A DNA stretch of 41,535 nucleotides from NCBI GenBank assembly GCA_016201015.1, contig JACQDQ010000167.1, positions 1 through 41,535 of the forward strand, given 5' to 3'. Position numbers and translations under genes: made by a program. The stretch is from Pseudomonadota bacterium (GTDB taxonomy: Bacteria; Pseudomonadota; Alphaproteobacteria; CACIAM-22H2). Each line of letters starts with the position of its first letter. Positions within the stretch are counted from its first letter, which is position 1. Shown in pieces: positions 6,679 through 40,985 of the stretch. Under the pieces are notes generated by a model, which was not told the DNA's origin, did no database searches, and saw only the letters and a list, made by a program, of their open reading frames with translations.

Positions 6679-7497
6679 TTAGCCGGGCATTTGCTCCGGG
6701 TGATGGCCGACGCGGAAATCGTTGCATCCGCTGCGATCGACACCGCGCAGCAACCAGATCGGCCTTGCGGCGAAGTCGACCGTATAGCCGCTCGCCGCAG
6801 TTCGCGGCATCAGCCCCCGGTCGAAATGCGAGGTCGCCGGCATGTAGCGAATGGCCACGCCGGCCCGCCGTTGCGGCGAGCGGTTCGCGTTGGAGCCATG
6901 GATGAGGTAGACGTCGTGCATGGACATCTCGCCGGCTTCGAGCTCCACATCGAACGCCGCGCCCGGATCGAACGCGCCGGCCTTCACCGTCTGCGTCAGC
7001 ACCACATCGGCGCGGTCCTCGCGCATGTGGTCGTAAAGCCGCCGTTCGCAATGCGAGCCGGGAATCACCCGGAGGCAGCCGTTCTCCACTGTCGAGGCGT
7101 CGAGCGCGATCCACACCGTGCATGTCGCCAGCGGCCGGATCGGCCAGTAATGCCCGTCTTGGTGCCACGGCACCGCCATGCCGTCGCCGCCGGGCTTACA
7201 AAAGATTTGGCAACCCCACAGGATGATGCCGGAGCCGATCAGCTGCGCGACCATGTCGAGGATGCCGGGATCGCGCGCGAGATCGAGGAAGTCGCGGCTG
7301 CCGCGCACGCCCTCGCCGTTCTCGCCCTCGATATGCGCGCTCACCAACCGCTCGGGCCGAACGGTAGGATTCTCCGCGATGAGGCGGTCGAGCGTGCGGC
7401 GCAAGCCATCCACCCTCGCCGCCGGCAGCCGCAGGGCGGGAACGACGATTCCGGTAGCGTGATAGCGTTCGATGTCGGGCTGCGACAAGCGAAGCAT
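6679..7497 (-). CDS. Phytanoyl-CoA dioxygenase (PhyH) family Fe(II)/2-oxoglutarate dioxygenase
   Basis: 'FCKPG...WHQDGHYW' (HxD), 'WIALD..TVENGCL.VIPGSH', distal 'HGS' and 'RRAG'. Confidence 0.92.
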   Translation of the reverse strand: MLRLSQPDIERYHATGIVVPALRLPAARVDGLRRTLDRLIAENPTVRPERLVSAHIEGENGEGVRGSRDFLDLARDPGILDMVAQLIGSGIILWGCQIFCKPGGDGMAVPWHQDGHYWPIRPLATCTVWIALDASTVENGCLRVIPGSHCERRLYDHMREDRADVVLTQTVKAGAFDPGAAFDVELEAGEMSMHDVYLIHGSNANRSPQRRAGVAIRYMPATSHFDRGLMPRTAASGYTVDFAARPIWLLRGVDRSGCNDFRVGHHPEQMPG

Positions 7498-7589
7498 GCC
7501 GCGTTCTCCTCGACTCGTTCTAGCACATGACCGCGTTCATGACGGGGGATGATGCGGCGTCGGGTCCGGCCCGGGTTGAGTCCGGCGCC

Positions 7590-8699
7590 CTAGCGGCGGA
7601 GCACCTCTTTCAGCGCCGCCAGCACCGCGTCAGTGTCCTCTGCCGTCCCTGCCGTGATACGGATGAACGTGTCGTAACCGGGCATGCGCCAATTGGCAAT
7701 GATGATCCCACGATCGGCAAGGGCAGCGAGCACTGGCGCGGCGGGGTGGCCGATATCGGCCGAGATGAAATTGGTAACCGTCGGCAGCGGATTCAGGCCC
7801 AGCGTGATGAGGCCGGAGGCCAGCCGCGCTATCTCGCGCTGGCACCCGGCAATCAGCGCGTCGCGATATTCAGGCTCTTTCAGAGCGGCCAGAGCCGCGG
7901 CATAGGCCAGCTCGCTAACCGCGAAGGCCTGACGGACCTTGCGGTACTGCACAGCCGTCGCCGGCGAGTCGCACAACGCGTAGCCGACGCGCATGCCGGC
8001 GATGGCATAGGCCTTGGAGAAGGTGCGCAACACCGCCCACGGCGCCGCCCGCCGCTTCAGCGGCACGAACACGTCCGGCGCACCCGCCGCTTTGGCGAAC
8101 TCGAAATAGGCTTCGTCGAACACCAGCAGCACATGCGCCGGCACGGCATCGACGAGCCGCGCAAGCTCGGCGGCGCTCAACATGCCGCCGGTCGGATTGT
8201 TCGGATTGCAGCAGAACAACACGCGCGTGCGCGGCGTGACCGCCGCCGCCAACGCGTCGACGTCGTTGGCGCCGCCGGCGGCGGTTTTCACCTGCACCGG
8301 CCGCCCGCCTAGCAGCAGCGTCGACATCTGGTAGCGCTGGAAGCTCGGGACCGGCATCACCGCCTCGTCGCCCGGATCGAGCGTGATCATGCAGCTCGCA
8401 TGCAGCAGCTCCTCGCTGCCGTTGGCAAAGGTGATGCAATCGGCCGGCACGCCGGTCTGCTCGGCCAGTGCGGACGCCAGGCTGGCGCTGACCGGCTCGG
8501 GATAGCGGTTGGAACCGCGCGCCGCCGCATCGATCGCGACGATCACCGCCGGTGACGGCGGCAGCGGACTTTCGTTCAGATGCAGCACCCGCGCTTTGGC
8601 GCCGCCGGGACGCCGCCAAATCTGCGATGCCGCCGTCGGCCCCGGAGAGGCCGGAATCGCAGCAATCGCCGGCCGAAACGGGCCGGTGGTGGTCGTCAT
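7590..8699 (-). CDS. Histidinol-phosphate transaminase-like PLP aminotransferase (class I/II)
   Basis: 'LHLNESP', 'NRYPE', 'NPNNPTG', 'DEAYFEF', 'RTFSKAYAIAGMRVGY' (PLP lysine). Not in a his operon, so probably a paralog. Confidence 0.9.
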   Translation of the reverse strand: MTTTTGPFRPAIAAIPASPGPTAASQIWRRPGGAKARVLHLNESPLPPSPAVIVAIDAAARGSNRYPEPVSASLASALAEQTGVPADCITFANGSEELLHASCMITLDPGDEAVMPVPSFQRYQMSTLLLGGRPVQVKTAAGGANDVDALAAAVTPRTRVLFCCNPNNPTGGMLSAAELARLVDAVPAHVLLVFDEAYFEFAKAAGAPDVFVPLKRRAAPWAVLRTFSKAYAIAGMRVGYALCDSPATAVQYRKVRQAFAVSELAYAAALAALKEPEYRDALIAGCQREIARLASGLITLGLNPLPTVTNFISADIGHPAAPVLAALADRGIIIANWRMPGYDTFIRITAGTAEDTDAVLAALKEVLRR

Positions 8700-35686: not shown

Positions 35687-35742
35687 GTAACCGGCCGCAT
35701 GTTGTTCGGCCGGCCAATGACATCGCGATGGGGAGGACGACC

Positions 35743-37110
35743 ATGAAACTGCGTGTCGCATACCGGCGCTTCGCCGCTTGGTTCGGGCTGGCCCTCTTGG
35801 CCGCTGCCGCGCCCGCCGCGGCGCAGACTGGCGTCAACAAGCTGCAGCACATCGTCGTCATCTATATGGAGAATCGGTCCTTCGACAATCTGTACGGTTT
35901 GTTCCCCGGCGCCAACGGCATCACCAACGCGGGCGCGGCGGCGATTCAGGTCGACAAGGACGGTAAGCCGTTGGCCAAGCCGGTACCGGTCATCGACACG
36001 CGCCTCAAGCCGCCGGCTCCCGACCCGCGCTTCCCGGCCGACCTGCCCAATACCCCGTTCCGGCTGGAACCCTATGTGCCGCTGGCCGGCGGCTTGACCG
36101 GCGATCTTATCCACGCCTTCTACCACCAGCAGCAACAGATCAACGACGGCCAGATGAACAAATTCGCCGCCGTGTCCAACGCCGGCGGCTTGACAATGGG
36201 CTATTTCGACGGCTCGCCGATGAAGCTGTGGGACTACGCCAAGCGCTACACGTTGGCCGACAATTTCTTTCACGCCGCCTTCGGCGGCTCGTTCCTCAAC
36301 CATTTCTGGCTGATCTGCGCCTGCTCGCCGCGCCATCCCGACGCGCCCGACGCAATCCGCGCCAAGCTCGACGAAAGCGGCAAAATGACCAAGAACGGCA
36401 TGGTGACCCCCGACGGATATGCCGTCAACACCATGCAACCCGAGCACGGGCCGAAGAACCCGACTATCCATCACGAGGAGCTGCTGCCGCCGCAGGACAT
36501 GACGACGATCGGCGACCGCCTGTCCGAGAAGGGCATCGCCTGGGCCTACTACGCCGGCGGCTGGAACGAGGCCAATGCCGGCACGGTCGATCCCGTGCGC
36601 TTCAGCTACCACCACCAGCCCTTCGCCTTCCTCAAGAAATTCGGCCCGGGCACCGAGGGCCGAGCGCGGCACCTCAAGGATCTCGACGATTTCATCGCCG
36701 ACATCGACAAGGGCACGCTGCCGCCGGTCGCCTACTACAAGCCGCGGCGCGGCATCAACCAGCATCCGTGCTGCACCGATGTCGGCGACGGCGACGCGCA
36801 CGCCGCCGATCTGCTGCGGCGGATCGAGGCGAGCCCGTTATGGCCGTCGACCGCTGTCATCCTCACCTATGACGAGAACGGCGGCTGGTGGGACCACGTC
36901 GCACCGCCGAAGGTCGACCGCTGGGGCCCCGGCGCCCGTGTGCCCGCGATCATCATCTCGCCCTTCGCCCGCAAGGGCTTCATCGATCACACGCTCTACG
37001 ACACGACTTCGATCCTGAAGCTGATCGAGCTGCGGTTCGGCCTGGCGCCGCTCGGCGAGCGTGACGCCAAGGCCAACGACCTCACCGCCGCCTTCGATTT
37101 CGGCGGCTGA
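35743..37110 (+). CDS. Secreted acid phosphatase / phospholipase C-like phosphoesterase (AcpA-like)
   Basis: Signal peptide; '[14 protein letters not shown]' (catalytic Ser), 'GGSFLNH', 'YHHQPF', '[15 protein letters not shown]', '[11 protein letters not shown]'. Confidence 0.92.
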
Positions 37111-37118
37111 GCCGCGCG

Positions 37119-37913
37119 CTACGCGTCCTTCGGCTCGACGTCGAGCCGCGCAACGATGCCCTGCAGCTCCGGCTTCGGCGCCGGATAGCGCGCCATCACC
37201 AGCGGGTCGTGGCCGGGGATGATATGGCGCGGCGAGGCGGCCAGCCGGCGCAGCGCGCCGAAGGCTTCGAGCGTGTCGCCCAGGTGATAGACGAAGGGGA
37301 AAGGCCGCCCCTGCTCCATGTTGGCGTAGTAGTGGCTGGCATCGGAGGCGAGAACCAGCCAGCCGCGCCGCGTCCACACGCGCGCCACTTGCAGGCCGGC
37401 GGTGTGGCCGCCGACCCAATGCAGGCTGAAACCGGGCGCGAGTTCCGCGGCGCCGTCATGGAACTGCACGCGGCCGCGAAACACTTCGCGCACCATGCCG
37501 GTCACATTGTCGACATCGAAGCCGCCGCGGAAATAGTCGTGGCACATGTGCCGCCCGGTGACGAAGGCCATCTCGCGGTCCTGCAGGTGAAACGTCGCCT
37601 GCGGGAACAGGTCGTGGTTGCCGACATGGTCGTAATGCATATGCGTGATCACCACGTCGGCGACGCCCTTGGCCTCGATGCCGAGACGGCTGAGCCCGTC
37701 GGTCGGACAGCGCAGGAATTCCCGCCGCCGCCGCGTCGCCGCTACCTGGTTGAAACCGGTGTCGACGATGAAGCTGCGTTGCGGGCCGACCACCGCCCAG
37801 ACGAAATAGTCCATCGACATCGGCCCGTCATGCGGGTCGGCGGCGATGAAATTCTCCTGCGGCCGGCGATCGACCCGCGCGTAGCGGACGGCGTAAACCT
37901 CGAACGGCTCCAT
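37119..37913 (-). CDS. Metallo-beta-lactamase-fold hydrolase (N-acyl homoserine lactonase family)
   Basis: 'VDTG', HxHxDH 'THMHYDH', 'GGHTAG', 'LASDASH', 'PGHDP'. Confidence 0.9.
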   Translation of the reverse strand: MEPFEVYAVRYARVDRRPQENFIAADPHDGPMSMDYFVWAVVGPQRSFIVDTGFNQVAATRRRREFLRCPTDGLSRLGIEAKGVADVVITHMHYDHVGNHDLFPQATFHLQDREMAFVTGRHMCHDYFRGGFDVDNVTGMVREVFRGRVQFHDGAAELAPGFSLHWVGGHTAGLQVARVWTRRGWLVLASDASHYYANMEQGRPFPFVYHLGDTLEAFGALRRLAASPRHIIPGHDPLVMARYPAPKPELQGIVARLDVEPKDA

Positions 37914-37957
37914 TCATATCCCCATTTCAGACAACGCTTGCGATGCACCAGGACATT

Positions 37958-38869
37958 CTACGGGCCAAGCGTCGTGCCGCTCGCCCGCTCGAGGAACTTG
38001 ACCACGGCGGTGTGATCTTCCGCTTCGCCGAGCGCCTGCGCCGCATCTCCCCAAATCTTCGCGCAGAGCTGAGTAAGCTGGCTGAAGGCGCCCGTCGTCT
38101 TGGCAAGGCGTTCGGCCGTGCGCAGATCCTTCGCCATCAAGCCCAACGAAAAGCCGGAGGCGAAGCCGCGCGACAGGATCTGCTGCTTGAACTTGTTCTC
38201 CGTACTGGTGTTGCGCCCGGTCGAGGCATTGAGCACGTCGACCATCGTCTCCGGTGCCAGCCCGAATTGCTTCCCGGCCAGCAGCGCCTCCGCCGCGATC
38301 CACAGGCCGGCGGCGGAGACCAGGTTGTTGAGCGCCTTCATCGCGTGACCCGAGCCGAGCGGGCCGGTGAGAAATACCTGCTTCGCCATCGTCGCGATGA
38401 GTGGGCGCGCGCGCTCGATGATTTCCGCGGTGCCGCCGATCATCGTCGCCAGCGAGGCGTCGGCGGCGCGCTTGACGCCGCCAGACACCGGCGCATCGAC
38501 GAGGTGCACATCTCGCTTGGCGAGGACCTCGCCCAGCGCGCGCGTGCCGACTGGGTCGGAAGAGCTCATGTCGATGACGATCGTGCCGGGGCGCAGGCGG
38601 TCGGCGAGACCGCCGCCGAGCAGAACCTCGCGCACAACATTGCCGTCTGGCAGCATGGTGATGACCGCGTCCAGCGCTGCGCCGTGGTCGTTGTAGGAGA
38701 GCGCGATCGTGCCGCGATGAGCCGCGAGGAATTTTCGCAACGTCTCCTCATAGTTGTCGGCGGCGTAGACACGATAGCCCGCCGCCACGAGATGCGGCGC
38801 CATCAGCCTGCCCATATTGCCGACGCCGATGAAACCGACCGCGGCCGGCGGCCGCAATGGTGAGCGCAC
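37958..38869 (-). CDS. NAD(P)-dependent beta-hydroxyacid dehydrogenase (3-hydroxyisobutyrate dehydrogenase family)
   Basis: 'GFIGVGNMG..MA', 'IDMSS', 'DAPVSGG', 'GSGHAMKALNN', 'FSLGLMAKDL'. Confidence 0.92.
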   Translation of the reverse strand: MRSPLRPPAAVGFIGVGNMGRLMAPHLVAAGYRVYAADNYEETLRKFLAAHRGTIALSYNDHGAALDAVITMLPDGNVVREVLLGGGLADRLRPGTIVIDMSSSDPVGTRALGEVLAKRDVHLVDAPVSGGVKRAADASLATMIGGTAEIIERARPLIATMAKQVFLTGPLGSGHAMKALNNLVSAAGLWIAAEALLAGKQFGLAPETMVDVLNASTGRNTSTENKFKQQILSRGFASGFSLGLMAKDLRTAERLAKTTGAFSQLTQLCAKIWGDAAQALGEAEDHTAVVKFLERASGTTLGP

Positions 38870-38931: not shown

Positions 38932-40014
38932 CTATTGCAACAACAGCTCGGCGATCTGCACCGCGTTGAGCGCCGCGCCCTTCAAGAGCTGATCGCCGGC
39001 GGCGAACATCGCGATGGACCTGCCGCTGGAATCGCTGAGGTCGGAGCGGATGCGGCCGACCAGAATGTCGTCCCTGCCGGTCGCATCCTTGGGCATCGGG
39101 AAGTAGTTGCGCTCGATGTCGTCGACGACTCGCACGCCGGGCGCCGTTTTCAATATTTCGCGAACCTCATCGGCGGCAATCGGACGCTCGCATTCGACAT
39201 TGAGGGCCACCGAGTGCGCCCGCAGCACCGGCACGCGGACGCAGGTCGCGGTCACTCGGATCGTCGGATCGCCGAAGATCTTCCGCGTCTCGTTCATCAC
39301 CTTCGTCTCCTCGTCGTTGTAGCCGGTGCGCGGATCGATCTTGGTGTTGTGGCTGAACAGATTGAAGGCGTAGGGGTGCGGCAGGATGCGGTTCCTGTAG
39401 ATACGGCCGTCGAGATAGGCGCGCGTCGATTCGCGCAGCTCTTCCATCGCCGCGGCGCCGGCGCCCGAGGCCGCCTGATAGGTGGAGACAATCAGGCGCC
39501 GGATCGGATTCAGCCGATGGATCGGCCATAGCGGCGTGATGGCGACGATCGCCGCGCAGTTCGGGTTGGCGATAATGCCGTTGTGCAGCCGGATCGCCTC
39601 GGGATTGATCTCCGGAATGACCAGCGGCACGTCGGGCTCCATGCGGAACGCCGAGGAATTGTCGATGACGACCGCGCCTTGGCGGACCGCGGCCGGAGCG
39701 AAGTGACGGGAGATGGCTCCGCCCGCAGAGAAAAAGGCGATATCGACGCCCTCGAAGCTGCGCTCAGTCAGCTCTTCGACCTCAACGCCGGCGCCGTTGA
39801 ACGGCAGCGACTTGCCGGCCGACCGGGCCGAGGCGAAGAGACGCAGTTTGGCGAGTGGGAAGCGCCGGTCGCTCAAGCATTGCAGCAATTCAACGCCGAC
39901 CGCGCCGGTGGCGCCGACCATGGCAACCACCGGCGACGCTAGTCGGCCGCCTAGCCGCGTGCCGCTTGCCGAATGCGGCGAAAGAACATCGACGGTCGAT
40001 TGAGTCGGGCACAT
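38932..40014 (-). CDS. asd: Aspartate-semialdehyde dehydrogenase
   Basis: 'GATGAVG', 'ASARSAGK', 'IDNSSAFRM', catalytic 'NPNC', 'STYQAASGAG', 'EETK..NETRKI', 'CVRVPV.RAHS', 'GDQLLKGAALNAVQIAE'; AAGGAG RBS. Confidence 0.95.
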   Translation of the reverse strand: MCPTQSTVDVLSPHSASGTRLGGRLASPVVAMVGATGAVGVELLQCLSDRRFPLAKLRLFASARSAGKSLPFNGAGVEVEELTERSFEGVDIAFFSAGGAISRHFAPAAVRQGAVVIDNSSAFRMEPDVPLVIPEINPEAIRLHNGIIANPNCAAIVAITPLWPIHRLNPIRRLIVSTYQAASGAGAAAMEELRESTRAYLDGRIYRNRILPHPYAFNLFSHNTKIDPRTGYNDEETKVMNETRKIFGDPTIRVTATCVRVPVLRAHSVALNVECERPIAADEVREILKTAPGVRVVDDIERNYFPMPKDATGRDDILVGRIRSDLSDSSGRSIAMFAAGDQLLKGAALNAVQIAELLLQ

Positions 40015-40051
40015 GTCTGTCTCCTTCGTTGAGCCGGAGAGACGAGAGCCC

Positions 40052-40089
40052 GAAACGACAAGGCCCCGTCCGGTGCCGGCGGGGCCTTG
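40052..40089 (-). terminator. Attenuator terminator hairpin (3:4) upstream of asd
   Basis: Perfect 10-bp stem CAAGGCCCCG/CGGGGCCTTG (40059-40068 with 40080-40089), followed on the minus strand by TCGTTTC; about 45 bp before the asd ATG. Confidence 0.75.
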
Positions 40090-40110
40090 AGGGTCGCTAT
40101 GTCGCTCGGA

Positions 40111-40185
40111 TCAGCGCACAAGCACCTCAGACACCCCGGCGGGGGTCTTCTTGGCGGCCGTGCGCTTGGTTGTCGAGCGAAGCAT
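40111..40185 (-). CDS. Putative Thr/Lys-rich attenuator leader peptide of asd (MLRSTTKRTAAKKTPAGVSEVLVR)
   Basis: ATG at 40185 to TGA at 40113-40111; 4 Thr and 3 Lys within codons 5-14; overlaps mutually exclusive hairpins. Below the ORF-track size cutoff. Confidence 0.72.
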   Translation of the reverse strand: MLRSTTKRTAAKKTPAGVSEVLVR

Positions 40186-40193
40186 GGAGCGAA

Positions 40194-40220
40194 ATTATCT
40201 CAGCCGATGCCGCCTGTAAA
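40194..40220 (-). promoter_or_regulatory. Candidate sigma70 promoter for the leader-asd transcript (near-leaderless leader ORF)
   Basis: TTTACA (40220-40215) and extended -10 TG-A-GATAAT (-10 hexamer 40199-40194), 8 nt before the leader ATG; no SD. The 15-nt spacer is short. Confidence 0.45.
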
Positions 40221-40253: not shown

Positions 40254-40985
40254 TCAAACGTCGATATCGACGACGATGGGGACATGGTCGCTCAAGCCGG
40301 AGCCGCACCAGTCCTCGAATGTGCCGAGGCTGAGGTCCCTCACCTTGCCGATCCAATGCTCGGGGAGGAAAACATAGTCGATGTGATAGGTCGGGCCGTC
40401 CTTCCTGCGGTCGCGCCAATAGAGTGTCGGGACGGTCTCCTTACCCTGTGCTTCGCCACGGATCCTATGATAGGCGCTGACCAGGCCGAGAGCTTCGAGC
40501 ATCTCGACCTTGCTCGCGTGGTTGATGCGCCATCCCGGCTTATCCCAGATGACGTTGCTGTTGAGGTCGCCGGCAACGATGGCCGGCCGCTCGGTGAGGA
40601 AAGCCCGGTATCTGTCGAGCGCCCGGCGCAACGGCCCGGCCTGACGTTTCCGGGTGGCGCCGGCGCTCGCGTTCTGCGCCCACACCGCGAGCAGGTTGCA
40701 CGCCGTCGGCCCGGAGATATGGACCGGCGCAATGTAACGAAGTTTTGGGTCGTAGAGCTCCGACAGGCGCGCGGCGTAGCCGTTGAAGGTGAAGACGGCT
40801 AGGCCCTTGTGCGGGTTCCGCCCGATCCACACTGGCTCACATTCCGTCCAGGCGGACTTTCGACGTGCCCGAAAGCGGCCCGGTTCGGCGCATTCGCAAA
40901 CGATGGCGATGTCCGGTGCGAGACCGAGCAGGACATCGATCTTGCGGTCCAGCGCCATGCCGCAGTTCCAGGCGACGATCCTCAT
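40254..40985 (-). CDS. Endonuclease/exonuclease/phosphatase (EEP) family protein
   Basis: 'RIVAWNC', 'PDIAIVCE', 'VAGDLNS', 'YHIDYVF', 'SDHVP'. Confidence 0.9.
   Translation of the reverse strand: MRIVAWNCGMALDRKIDVLLGLAPDIAIVCECAEPGRFRARRKSAWTECEPVWIGRNPHKGLAVFTFNGYAARLSELYDPKLRYIAPVHISGPTACNLLAVWAQNASAGATRKRQAGPLRRALDRYRAFLTERPAIVAGDLNSNVIWDKPGWRINHASKVEMLEALGLVSAYHRIRGEAQGKETVPTLYWRDRRKDGPTYHIDYVFLPEHWIGKVRDLSLGTFEDWCGSGLSDHVPIVVDIDV

Follow-up and report, generated by a model that had tools for sequence, protein, structure and literature searches.

The window analysed here is a stretch of 41,535 nucleotides (nt), contig JACQDQ010000167.1 of the alphaproteobacterial assembly GCA_016201015.1. 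Its minus strand carries a gene for aspartate-semialdehyde dehydrogenase (asd, 40014-38932), preceded by a compact leader element at 40220-40049. From the letters alone, a first-pass annotation had proposed that this element is a transcription attenuator sensing threonine and lysine and controlling asd. The deduced protein has 360 residues with an N-terminal extension of about 24, and matches the NCBIfam models NF011456 (433.1 bits, cut-off 223) and TIGR01296 (398.1 bits, cut-off 324.2), both from residue 30, confirming the proposed identity of the gene. The window genome (551 contigs, 96% complete) contains a second asd gene on contig C337, and the two are 44% identical. Control of asd is upheld in so far as the gene is asd, with the amendment that it is a second paralog. 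An asd match was found in 39 of 40 relatives, whereas an ortholog of the leader-bearing copy (65-72% identity) was found only in G004, G006, G007, G016 and G019, each of which also has a second asd match. Orthologs carry N-terminal extensions of varying length and sequence ahead of the VAxVGATG motif (39928-40014 in the window, minus strand). The ATG at 40014 follows a strong Shine-Dalgarno sequence, GAAGGAG (40027-40021), whereas an in-frame GTG at codon 29 has none.

All parts of the leader were re-located on the minus strand by reading the sequence, including the promoter pair, the leader open reading frame (ORF), the four pairing segments and the asd ribosome-binding site, each at the position the first-pass annotation had given. 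The -35-like hexamer TTTACA (40220-40215) is followed by an extended -10-like box TGAGATAAT (40202-40194) of conserved position, with a spacing of 15 nt between TTTACA and GATAAT (40199-40194). The box ends 8 nt upstream of the ATG of a 24-codon ORF, MLRSTTKRTAAKKTPAGVSEVLVR (40185-40111, stop TGA at 40113-40111), which has no Shine-Dalgarno sequence. The position of the box suggests a leaderless or near-leaderless leader mRNA. Codons 5-14 (40173-40144) read ACA ACC AAG CGC ACG GCC GCC AAG AAG ACC and form the control block T5 T6 K7 R8 T9 A10 A11 K12 K13 T14. The count of four Thr and three Lys codons in ten thus agrees with the earlier one. Segment 1, AGACCCCC (40148-40141), is the 5' arm of the anti-antiterminator and overlaps codons K13, T14 and P15. 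Segment 2, GGGGUGUCUGAGG (40137-40125), can pair with segment 1 or with segment 3. The apical part of the antiterminator hairpin (40124-40093) includes the leader stop codon. Segment 3, CCUCAAGGCCCCGCCGG (40092-40076), is the 5' arm of the terminator and is shared with the antiterminator, and segment 4, CCGGACGGGGCCUUG (40073-40059), is the terminator 3' arm. The resulting GC-rich hairpin CAAGGCCCCGCCGG-CA-CCGGACGGGGCCUUG (40089-40059) begins 21 nt after the leader stop, and a weak U-rich tail, UCGUUUCGGG (40058-40049), lies directly 3' of segment 4.

The case that this arrangement is more than chance rests mainly on its conservation upstream of asd. The ortholog set comprised 85 loci, of which 80 came from a contig scan with one genome per species (proteins 63-80% identical to this Asd) and five from the relatives named above. 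A covariance model, R1, was built from the alignment A2 of 42 leaders, and a locus was scored positive at 38 bits or more on the + strand directly upstream of asd. R1 matched 56 of the 85 loci (51 of 80 in the scan and all five relatives). Five further loci showed the terminator part only and 24 showed nothing. The positive loci span Alpha-, Beta- and Gammaproteobacteria, with labels including Steroidobacteraceae and other Gammaproteobacteria, Reyranella, Rhodospirillaceae, Parvibaculum, Rhizomicrobium, Asticcacaulis, Acetobacteraceae, one Alcaligenaceae and one 'Marinimicrobia' bin. None of the 11 loci labelled Acidobacteriota, Terriglobia, Bryobacter-like, Elusimicrobia or Phycisphaeraceae matched, nor did L017, where the window genome has its other asd copy. 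Within the order of the window, 8 of 50 genomes have an R1 match, the window genome included, and the search of these 50 genomes added no downstream gene families to those described below.

The five close orthologs share TTTACA, the -10-like box, a Thr/Lys-rich ATG ORF, the GGCCCCGCC hairpin and a T-rich tail. Across the family, 6-9 nt separate the end of the -10-like box from the leader ATG, and a TTTACA or TTGACx hexamer starts 35-40 nt upstream of the ATG in 40 of 51 leaders. The claim of a leader ORF without a Shine-Dalgarno sequence is accordingly kept and extended: from the promoter-ATG distance and the missing Shine-Dalgarno sequence, the leader mRNA is probably leaderless or nearly so. 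The genes that flank asd in the window (HIBADH-like, MBL-fold and endonuclease/exonuclease/phosphatase (EEP)-like) stand beside asd in 0 of the 85 orthologous loci. Since the element accompanies asd in 56 of the same loci, it belongs to asd and not to the upstream gene. A conserved asd operon, with the HIBADH-like gene as homoserine dehydrogenase, was dropped on the same count of neighbours. A dispersed repeat was also dismissed, as BLAST of the 221-nt region against its own genome returned short terminator-like matches only. A scan of Rfam 15 at E values up to 10 gave four chance-level matches to microRNA or small RNA families (E 1.2-9.1, 10-18 bits against gathering thresholds of 40-90), and no leader or riboswitch family, RF00506 included. 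Beyond the close relatives, one further full-length asd match (43-47% identity) was found in the genomes of a Reyranella-labelled (G041) and a Parvibaculum-labelled locus (G044), and a partial one (query residues 230-359) in G043, whereas G042 and the genome of an Asticcacaulis-labelled locus (G045) gave no further match. The leader would therefore control the sole asd found in some lineages. As a separate observation, a 90.9-bit leader of the asd type at G008:C14:527519-528723 stands ahead of an asd-like frame that shares only 46% identity with the query and contains an in-frame TAG; this frame may be a decaying copy.

The leader peptides were compared next to their RNA. In 51 of 55 model-positive regions there is an ATG ORF, 14-40 codons long, whose end lies 10-60 nt upstream of the terminator core. 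This count leaves out the contig-cut R1 matches L021 and L062. Of the remaining four regions, one had a non-ATG candidate only and three had none by the ORF rules. The ATG is invariant in the 42 leaders of A2. The 51 leaders gave 49 unique peptides, in which the control region was defined as residue 2 to ten residues from the C-terminus (718 residues in all). Thr makes up 30.9% and Lys 20.6% of this region, together 51.5%, followed by Arg (9.1%), Ile (4.6%) and Met (3.8%). When the same nucleotides are read in the other two frames, Thr falls to 1.9% and 1.8% and Lys to 7.1% and 1.5%. All 49 peptides contain at least one Thr (range 1-9) and at least two Lys (range 2-4), bearing out the expectation of a conserved Thr/Lys-rich small ORF upstream of orthologous asd genes. 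The proposed set of sensed residues is amended only in that some relatives add Ile or Met codons. The three-nucleotide periodicity is strong, with A at 61.6%, 24.9% and 10.9% of codon positions 1, 2 and 3, G or C at 81% of position 3, and G at 7.8-12.5% of positions 1 and 2. The peptide sequence itself is not conserved, and only its composition and the RNA-constrained 3' part are retained. Reyranella-type leaders read ...TKTTTTTKTTTFGG..., and Steroidobacteraceae-type leaders read ...KTRKITLKKP.GG... with Ile and sometimes Met. Judged from the codon pattern, the small ORF is Thr/Lys-rich and under coding selection.

Folding of the window leader was compared with that of shuffled sequences. The whole leader of 191 nt folds at -87.3 kcal/mol (z-score -4.09, none of 200 shuffles as good), and a hairpin spanning most of it (40192-40094) at -48.2 kcal/mol (z -4.3). 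Hairpin 1:2, AGACCCCC/GGGGUGUCU (40148-40129), reaches -11.3 kcal/mol (z -1.8, 12/200 shuffles as good). The antiterminator 2:3 reaches -31.3 kcal/mol in the fold of 40139-40076 (z -2.96, 2/200) and the terminator 3:4, CAAGGCCCCGCCGG/CCGGACGGGGCCUUG, -27.1 kcal/mol in the fold of 40094-40049 (z -2.9, 2/200). Antiterminator and terminator are mutually exclusive, as the former uses the 5' arm of the latter. In A2, GCCCC and GGGG of the terminator stem are invariant in 42 of 42 leaders, T-rich columns are conserved after the stem, the GGG core of segment 2 is nearly invariant, and RNAalifold finds compensatory changes in three of the ten consensus pairs of the terminator. In the antiterminator, the partner of segment 2 (GGGG and about 12 further nt) is the stretch whose last letters are the terminator GGCCCC. 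The flanks vary by lineage and yet stay complementary, as in GGGGCUCUGGU/ACCAGAGGCCCC, GGGGUUUUUGG/CCAAAGGCCCC and GGGCCUGG/CCAGGCCC, or GGGG...UGAGG/CCUCA...CCCC in the window.

Because the helices shift register between lineages, duplex swap tests were chosen in place of column-based covariation. Cognate arms were compared with arms swapped between leaders in 10,000 permutations, with kinship among the leaders uncorrected. For 50 distinct segment pairs, the cognate 2:3 duplexes average -22.1 kcal/mol and the swapped ones -18.2 kcal/mol. After removal of the invariant core, the values are -7.7 and -5.9 kcal/mol, and when each of 39 clusters is represented by a single leader, -7.93 and -5.83 kcal/mol. 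Hairpin 1:2 can form in all 45 distinct leaders, with energies from -5.8 to -15.3 kcal/mol; its cognate arms average -10.9 and the swapped arms -9.3 kcal/mol. In all four tests, 0 of 10,000 permutations were as good. The 5' arm of hairpin 1:2 is built from the last control codons, such as AAG AAG CCC C, ACG ACC ACC or AAG ACC CCC.

The geometry of a translating ribosome was examined in silico with a footprint mask from -15 to +12 around the A site, placed at each leader codon of the 42 leaders. In transcripts ending before the terminator 3' arm, the terminator 5' arm is on average 88% paired upstream when the footprint lies on the control codons, and 51% once the footprint covers the G-run. 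All 42 leaders show this drop, which amounts to at least 0.2 in 41 of them. In the window leader, the productive footprint positions are codons 6-13.

The scaffold is not confined to asd, since R1 also matches sibling elements elsewhere in the window genome and its relatives. Three readable leaders lie upstream of N-terminally truncated thrS paralogs. They contain runs of four (G000, C499; ...SATTTTR...), seven (G004, L146; ...CTTTTTTTR...) and five Thr (a metagenome locus, L183; ...TSTTTTTR...), and none contains Lys. The sibling in the window genome (G000; C499:6885-7019, + strand; L128, 1501-1635), with the leader MPTPRAVLSATTTTRIRARGSPGIDAR, precedes a thrS paralog without N-terminal domains, whose coding sequence falls into two frames (7062-7619 and 7628-8095) through a frameshift or an error in the assembly. 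The same genome has a full-length thrS on C437. The G004 paralog, also without N-terminal domains, matches positions 170-559 of 565 of TIGR00418 at 437 bits, above the cut-off. A fourth copy (L157) is cut by the contig end. A metagenome scan with the truncated threonyl-tRNA synthetase kept 80 loci of 48-62% identity, among which R1 matched only L157 and, weakly, L183. Thr and Lys occur together in 49 of 49 unique asd leaders, whereas Thr without Lys is the pattern in three of three readable thrS-paralog leaders. Therefore, the regulatory codons track the downstream gene.

Four genomes have a second dapA, above the TIGR00674 cut-off, behind sibling leaders that carry one to four Lys codons. In the window genome, the leader MEAVRITHLAKCRKSRIETGLKGLCMR (C60:9570-9705, minus strand; L130) stands upstream of a second dapA of 239.7 bits, and a higher-scoring dapA is on C121. 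The other three, with one to four Lys codons, are in G004, G007 and G016. The scaffold was also found upstream of small GNAT acetyltransferase genes in three relatives (L149, L150, L151) and of a DrrA-like ABC ATPase gene in the window genome (C16:7194-7292, + strand; L129), in both cases with no obvious amino-acid bias in the leader. The scaffold may thus also report stalling of other kinds, for example drug-responsive stalling. A 69-bit copy in a relative (G005:C1:2320698-2320814, minus strand; L141) lies between convergent genes, with no downstream gene on the same strand and with its Thr-codon frame broken near a run of eight T. This copy could be an orphaned remnant, or a small RNA in its own right.

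Based on these features, we consider it likely that the element is a ribosome-mediated leader-peptide transcription attenuator controlling the second asd, with Thr and Lys as regulatory codons. The invariant ATG, the in-frame Thr and Lys codons, the conserved terminator, the partner-specific helices and the fit of the footprint in all 42 leaders sustain the mechanism first put forward for this locus. In the proposed cycle, transcription would begin on the AUG of the 24-codon ORF or no more than a few bases away from it. When charged tRNA-Thr and tRNA-Lys are plentiful, the ribosome would reach the UGA at 40113-40111, inside the would-be antiterminator. Segment 2 (GGGG...) would then re-pair with segment 1 behind the ribosome, the terminator GGCCCCGCCGG/CCGGACGGGGCC would form, and transcription would stop before asd. 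When Thr or Lys is scarce, the ribosome would stall on codons 5-13 and cover segment 1, leaving segment 2 free to pair with the terminator 5' arm before the 3' arm is made, so that asd would be transcribed. If the leader is not translated, the long leader hairpin, an extended form of 1:2, would arise, making termination the default. We infer that the leader is translated, that termination takes place at the weak U-tract, that the antiterminator is trapped kinetically and that asd responds to starvation.

Several results weigh against this reading. A simple consensus scan of the window region called no promoter and no terminator. The tail after the hairpin, UCGUUUC, has fewer than five U in eight and falls below the threshold of that scan, a weakness that the first-pass annotation had itself conceded. 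The dapA, GNAT and ABC ATPase siblings show no clear amino-acid bias. The antiterminator flanks of the window, taken alone, have a z-score of -0.79, with 20% of shuffles as good, and z lies below -1 in only 17 of 39 cluster representatives. RNAalifold on MAFFT alignments gave a mixed structure for A1, the terminator alone for A2 and no pairs for A3 (segment 2 to 3); we ascribe the missing 2:3 helix to the shift of register between lineages. The expected covariation of the stems is supported by the compensatory pairs of the terminator and by the swap tests, in which kinship was left uncorrected, but not by a consensus fold containing 2:3. A similar division applies to the alternative states: the three helices 1:2, 2:3 and 3:4 can form, but the window copy does not switch at equilibrium. 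Its full-length leader forms the terminator at about 100% for every ribosome position, and in only 14 of the 42 full-length leaders does the terminator drop below 50% with the ribosome on the control codons. In 23 of the 42 leaders, the antiterminator is already dominant (at least 0.8) in shortened transcripts without a ribosome, and the 'off' default therefore depends on 1:2 forming first. As equilibrium folding gives no switch in the window, switching, if real, must be kinetic. The decision would be made as in classical attenuators, with 1:2 forming first unless the ribosome stalls, and 2:3 then forming before segment 4 exists.

Other explanations share part of this evidence. The attenuator might sense a general slowing of translation, caused by antibiotics, stringent conditions or an arrest peptide, and not the supply of Thr and Lys specifically. 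The same scaffold, with an ORF ending in ...CGC TGA followed by the GGCCCCGCC terminator, does occur, with leaders of no obvious amino-acid bias, before GNAT genes (three genomes) and before an ABC ATPase gene (one genome), and the dapA siblings have only one to four Lys. However, Thr and Lys are found in every one of the 49 unique asd leaders and fill 51.5% of the control region although the peptide is not conserved, and the thrS-paralog leaders use Thr only, a match of codons to gene that amino-acid sensing predicts. We regard sensing of general slowing as unlikely. About as improbable, in our view, is Rho-dependent termination or translational control of asd, in which the C-rich, G-poor control region would act as a rut-like site exposed when untranslated. 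The weak U-tract would suit it, as would the A/C-rich control region with its 7.8-12.5% G at codon positions 1 and 2, and a GTCTC...GGAGAC motif around the asd Shine-Dalgarno sequence (40010-40052 in the window, minus strand) is kept in the five close orthologs. Against it, no part of the element is as well conserved as the terminator stem, with GCCCC and GGGG invariant in 42 of 42 leaders and T-rich columns after them, and helix 2:3 competes specifically with this stem. A Shine-Dalgarno-sequestering hairpin at 40052-40010 is no better than shuffles in the window (z 0.02, 88/200 as good) and is not claimed.

It is very improbable that the hairpin is a plain terminator of the upstream gene and the small ORF fortuitous. 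The upstream 243-residue ORF (40254-40985, minus strand) has no NCBIfam match, and we take it to resemble an endonuclease/exonuclease/phosphatase-fold protein. The hairpin does lie about 165 nt after its stop codon on the same strand, and the genome has other hairpins of the GGCCCCGCC type that occur as plain terminators, one of them on C369. This explanation is countered by the company the element keeps (asd in 56 of 85 loci, the upstream gene in none), by a conserved promoter of its own at a fixed distance and by the in-frame codon bias. Attenuation by a Thr/Lys leader peptide thus stays our preferred interpretation of the asd element. A wider proposal takes in the siblings, and here we are tentative, rating it slightly below an even chance. 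In this proposal, a modular leaderless attenuator scaffold, made of a fixed promoter-AUG distance, a variable control block, a GGGG / GCGC-UGA / GGCCCCGCC switch and a terminator, would be reused before at least five proteobacterial gene families, with specificity set by the control codons only. The families would be asd (Thr, Lys and in some cases Ile or Met), N-terminally truncated thrS (Thr only), the second dapA, GNAT acetyltransferases and an ABC ATPase. With its asd member, the scaffold would include the first ribosome-mediated attenuator that reads the supply of lysine, and the spare asd, thrS and dapA paralogs would form a back-up set induced by starvation.

Around the element, asd is followed in the window by a HIBADH-family dehydrogenase gene (37958-38869, minus strand), below all equivalog cut-offs, and then by a gene for an MBL-fold lactonase-like protein (37119-37913, minus strand). 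On the other strand, within 35728-38869, a 460-residue frame with a signal-peptide-like start has the look of a phospholipase C or an acid phosphatase and is a candidate gene only. Separate asd copies, about 42-43% identical to the present one, are found on Sinorhizobium and Rhizobium accessory plasmids about 300-500 kb in size (PLSDB matches H33-H40).

Asd supplies the final intermediate shared by the routes to Lys, Thr, Met, Ile and diaminopimelate, and the matching of its level to several end products is poorly documented outside enterics and Firmicutes. If the proposed mechanism is true, one leader peptide would act as a compact multivalent sensor by counting Thr and Lys codons, and in some lineages Ile and Met codons too, and would place a branch-point enzyme of the aspartate family under the control of a single peptide. 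As far as our literature search reaches, it would also be the first ribosome-mediated attenuator to read lysine. Since the element occurs at 56 of 85 loci in three proteobacterial classes and matches nothing in Rfam 15, its recognition would improve the annotation of many genomes and metagenome bins, in which the leader ORF is now uncalled or 'hypothetical'. The siblings would offer a natural experiment on how control codons reprogram one RNA switch.

Among known systems, the thrL leader of Escherichia coli has a short leader ORF, three alternative helices and an intrinsic terminator, senses Thr and Ile, and controls thrABC. The present element resembles thrL (RF00506, Thr_leader) in its clustered regulatory codons, its 1:2, 2:3 and 3:4 helices, a candidate terminator before an aspartate-family gene and the multivalent sensing proposed for it. 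It differs in the residues it would sense (Thr and Lys, with some Ile and Met), in controlling asd, and in a leader ORF that has no Shine-Dalgarno sequence and is probably leaderless. In other bacteria, the lysine riboswitch (L-box) upstream of lysC, asd and dapA responds to lysine supply through premature termination or translation. Both devices tie lysine supply to the expression of an aspartate-pathway gene, but the L-box senses the metabolite directly and has no ORF, whereas the present element has no Rfam riboswitch match. For the thrS sibling, the closest parallel is thrZ of Bacillus subtilis, a second threonyl-tRNA synthetase gene induced by Thr starvation through a T-box. Each is a spare synthetase gene under a leader that senses, or in the sibling would sense, Thr starvation; in the sibling, however, the sensor would be a leader peptide with a Thr run, and the thrS paralog lacks the N-terminal domains.

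The first-pass annotation knew of no earlier description of such an element. This holds for Rfam, but not entirely for the literature. A full-text search found no asd leader-peptide attenuator except SEP5 of Sinorhizobium meliloti, with an earlier listing in comparative surveys or supplements possible, and the accessible portions of PMC2965389, PMC3766115 and PMC4833913 do not mention asd. According to the available sections of Hadjeras et al. 2023 (PMC10117765), SEP5 is a small ORF with six Thr and three Lys codons in the asd 5' untranslated region, its translation was detected by Ribo-seq and western blot, the authors suggest a leader peptide, and it is described as conserved only in Sinorhizobium. 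In CP090106.1, the SEP5 ORF ends in ...ARKTTAKTTTKTV*, 113 nt upstream of the annotated aspartate-semialdehyde dehydrogenase gene. As far as those sections describe it, SEP5 shares with the present leader an alphaproteobacterial origin, a Thr/Lys-rich composition and a place in the 5' untranslated region of asd. It differs in an annotated ORF that is longer (56 codons) with the control codons at its 3' end, in an asd only 43.6% identical to the present one and in its fold, and the sections named give neither a terminator/antiterminator model for it nor a distribution. R1 reached at most 6.2 bits on the SEP5 region (L156) with filters off, which is no match. On this comparison, SEP5 is an independent or highly diverged analogue and not demonstrably a homologue. 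As a partial precedent, it strengthens the functional reading and lowers the novelty.

A further parallel is trpL (rnTrpL) of S. meliloti, which the available sections of PMC10117765 and PMC12612679 describe as a ribosome-mediated attenuator whose small ORF starts a leaderless transcript. It senses Trp and controls trpE(G), whereas the asd leader would sense Thr and Lys; on these accounts, the two have in common an alphaproteobacterial setting, ribosome-mediated attenuation and, for the asd leader probably, a leaderless small ORF. Judged from its sequence and conservation, the present element is probably an attenuator that would work like thrL or trpL, outside any Rfam family and with a published partial precedent in SEP5.

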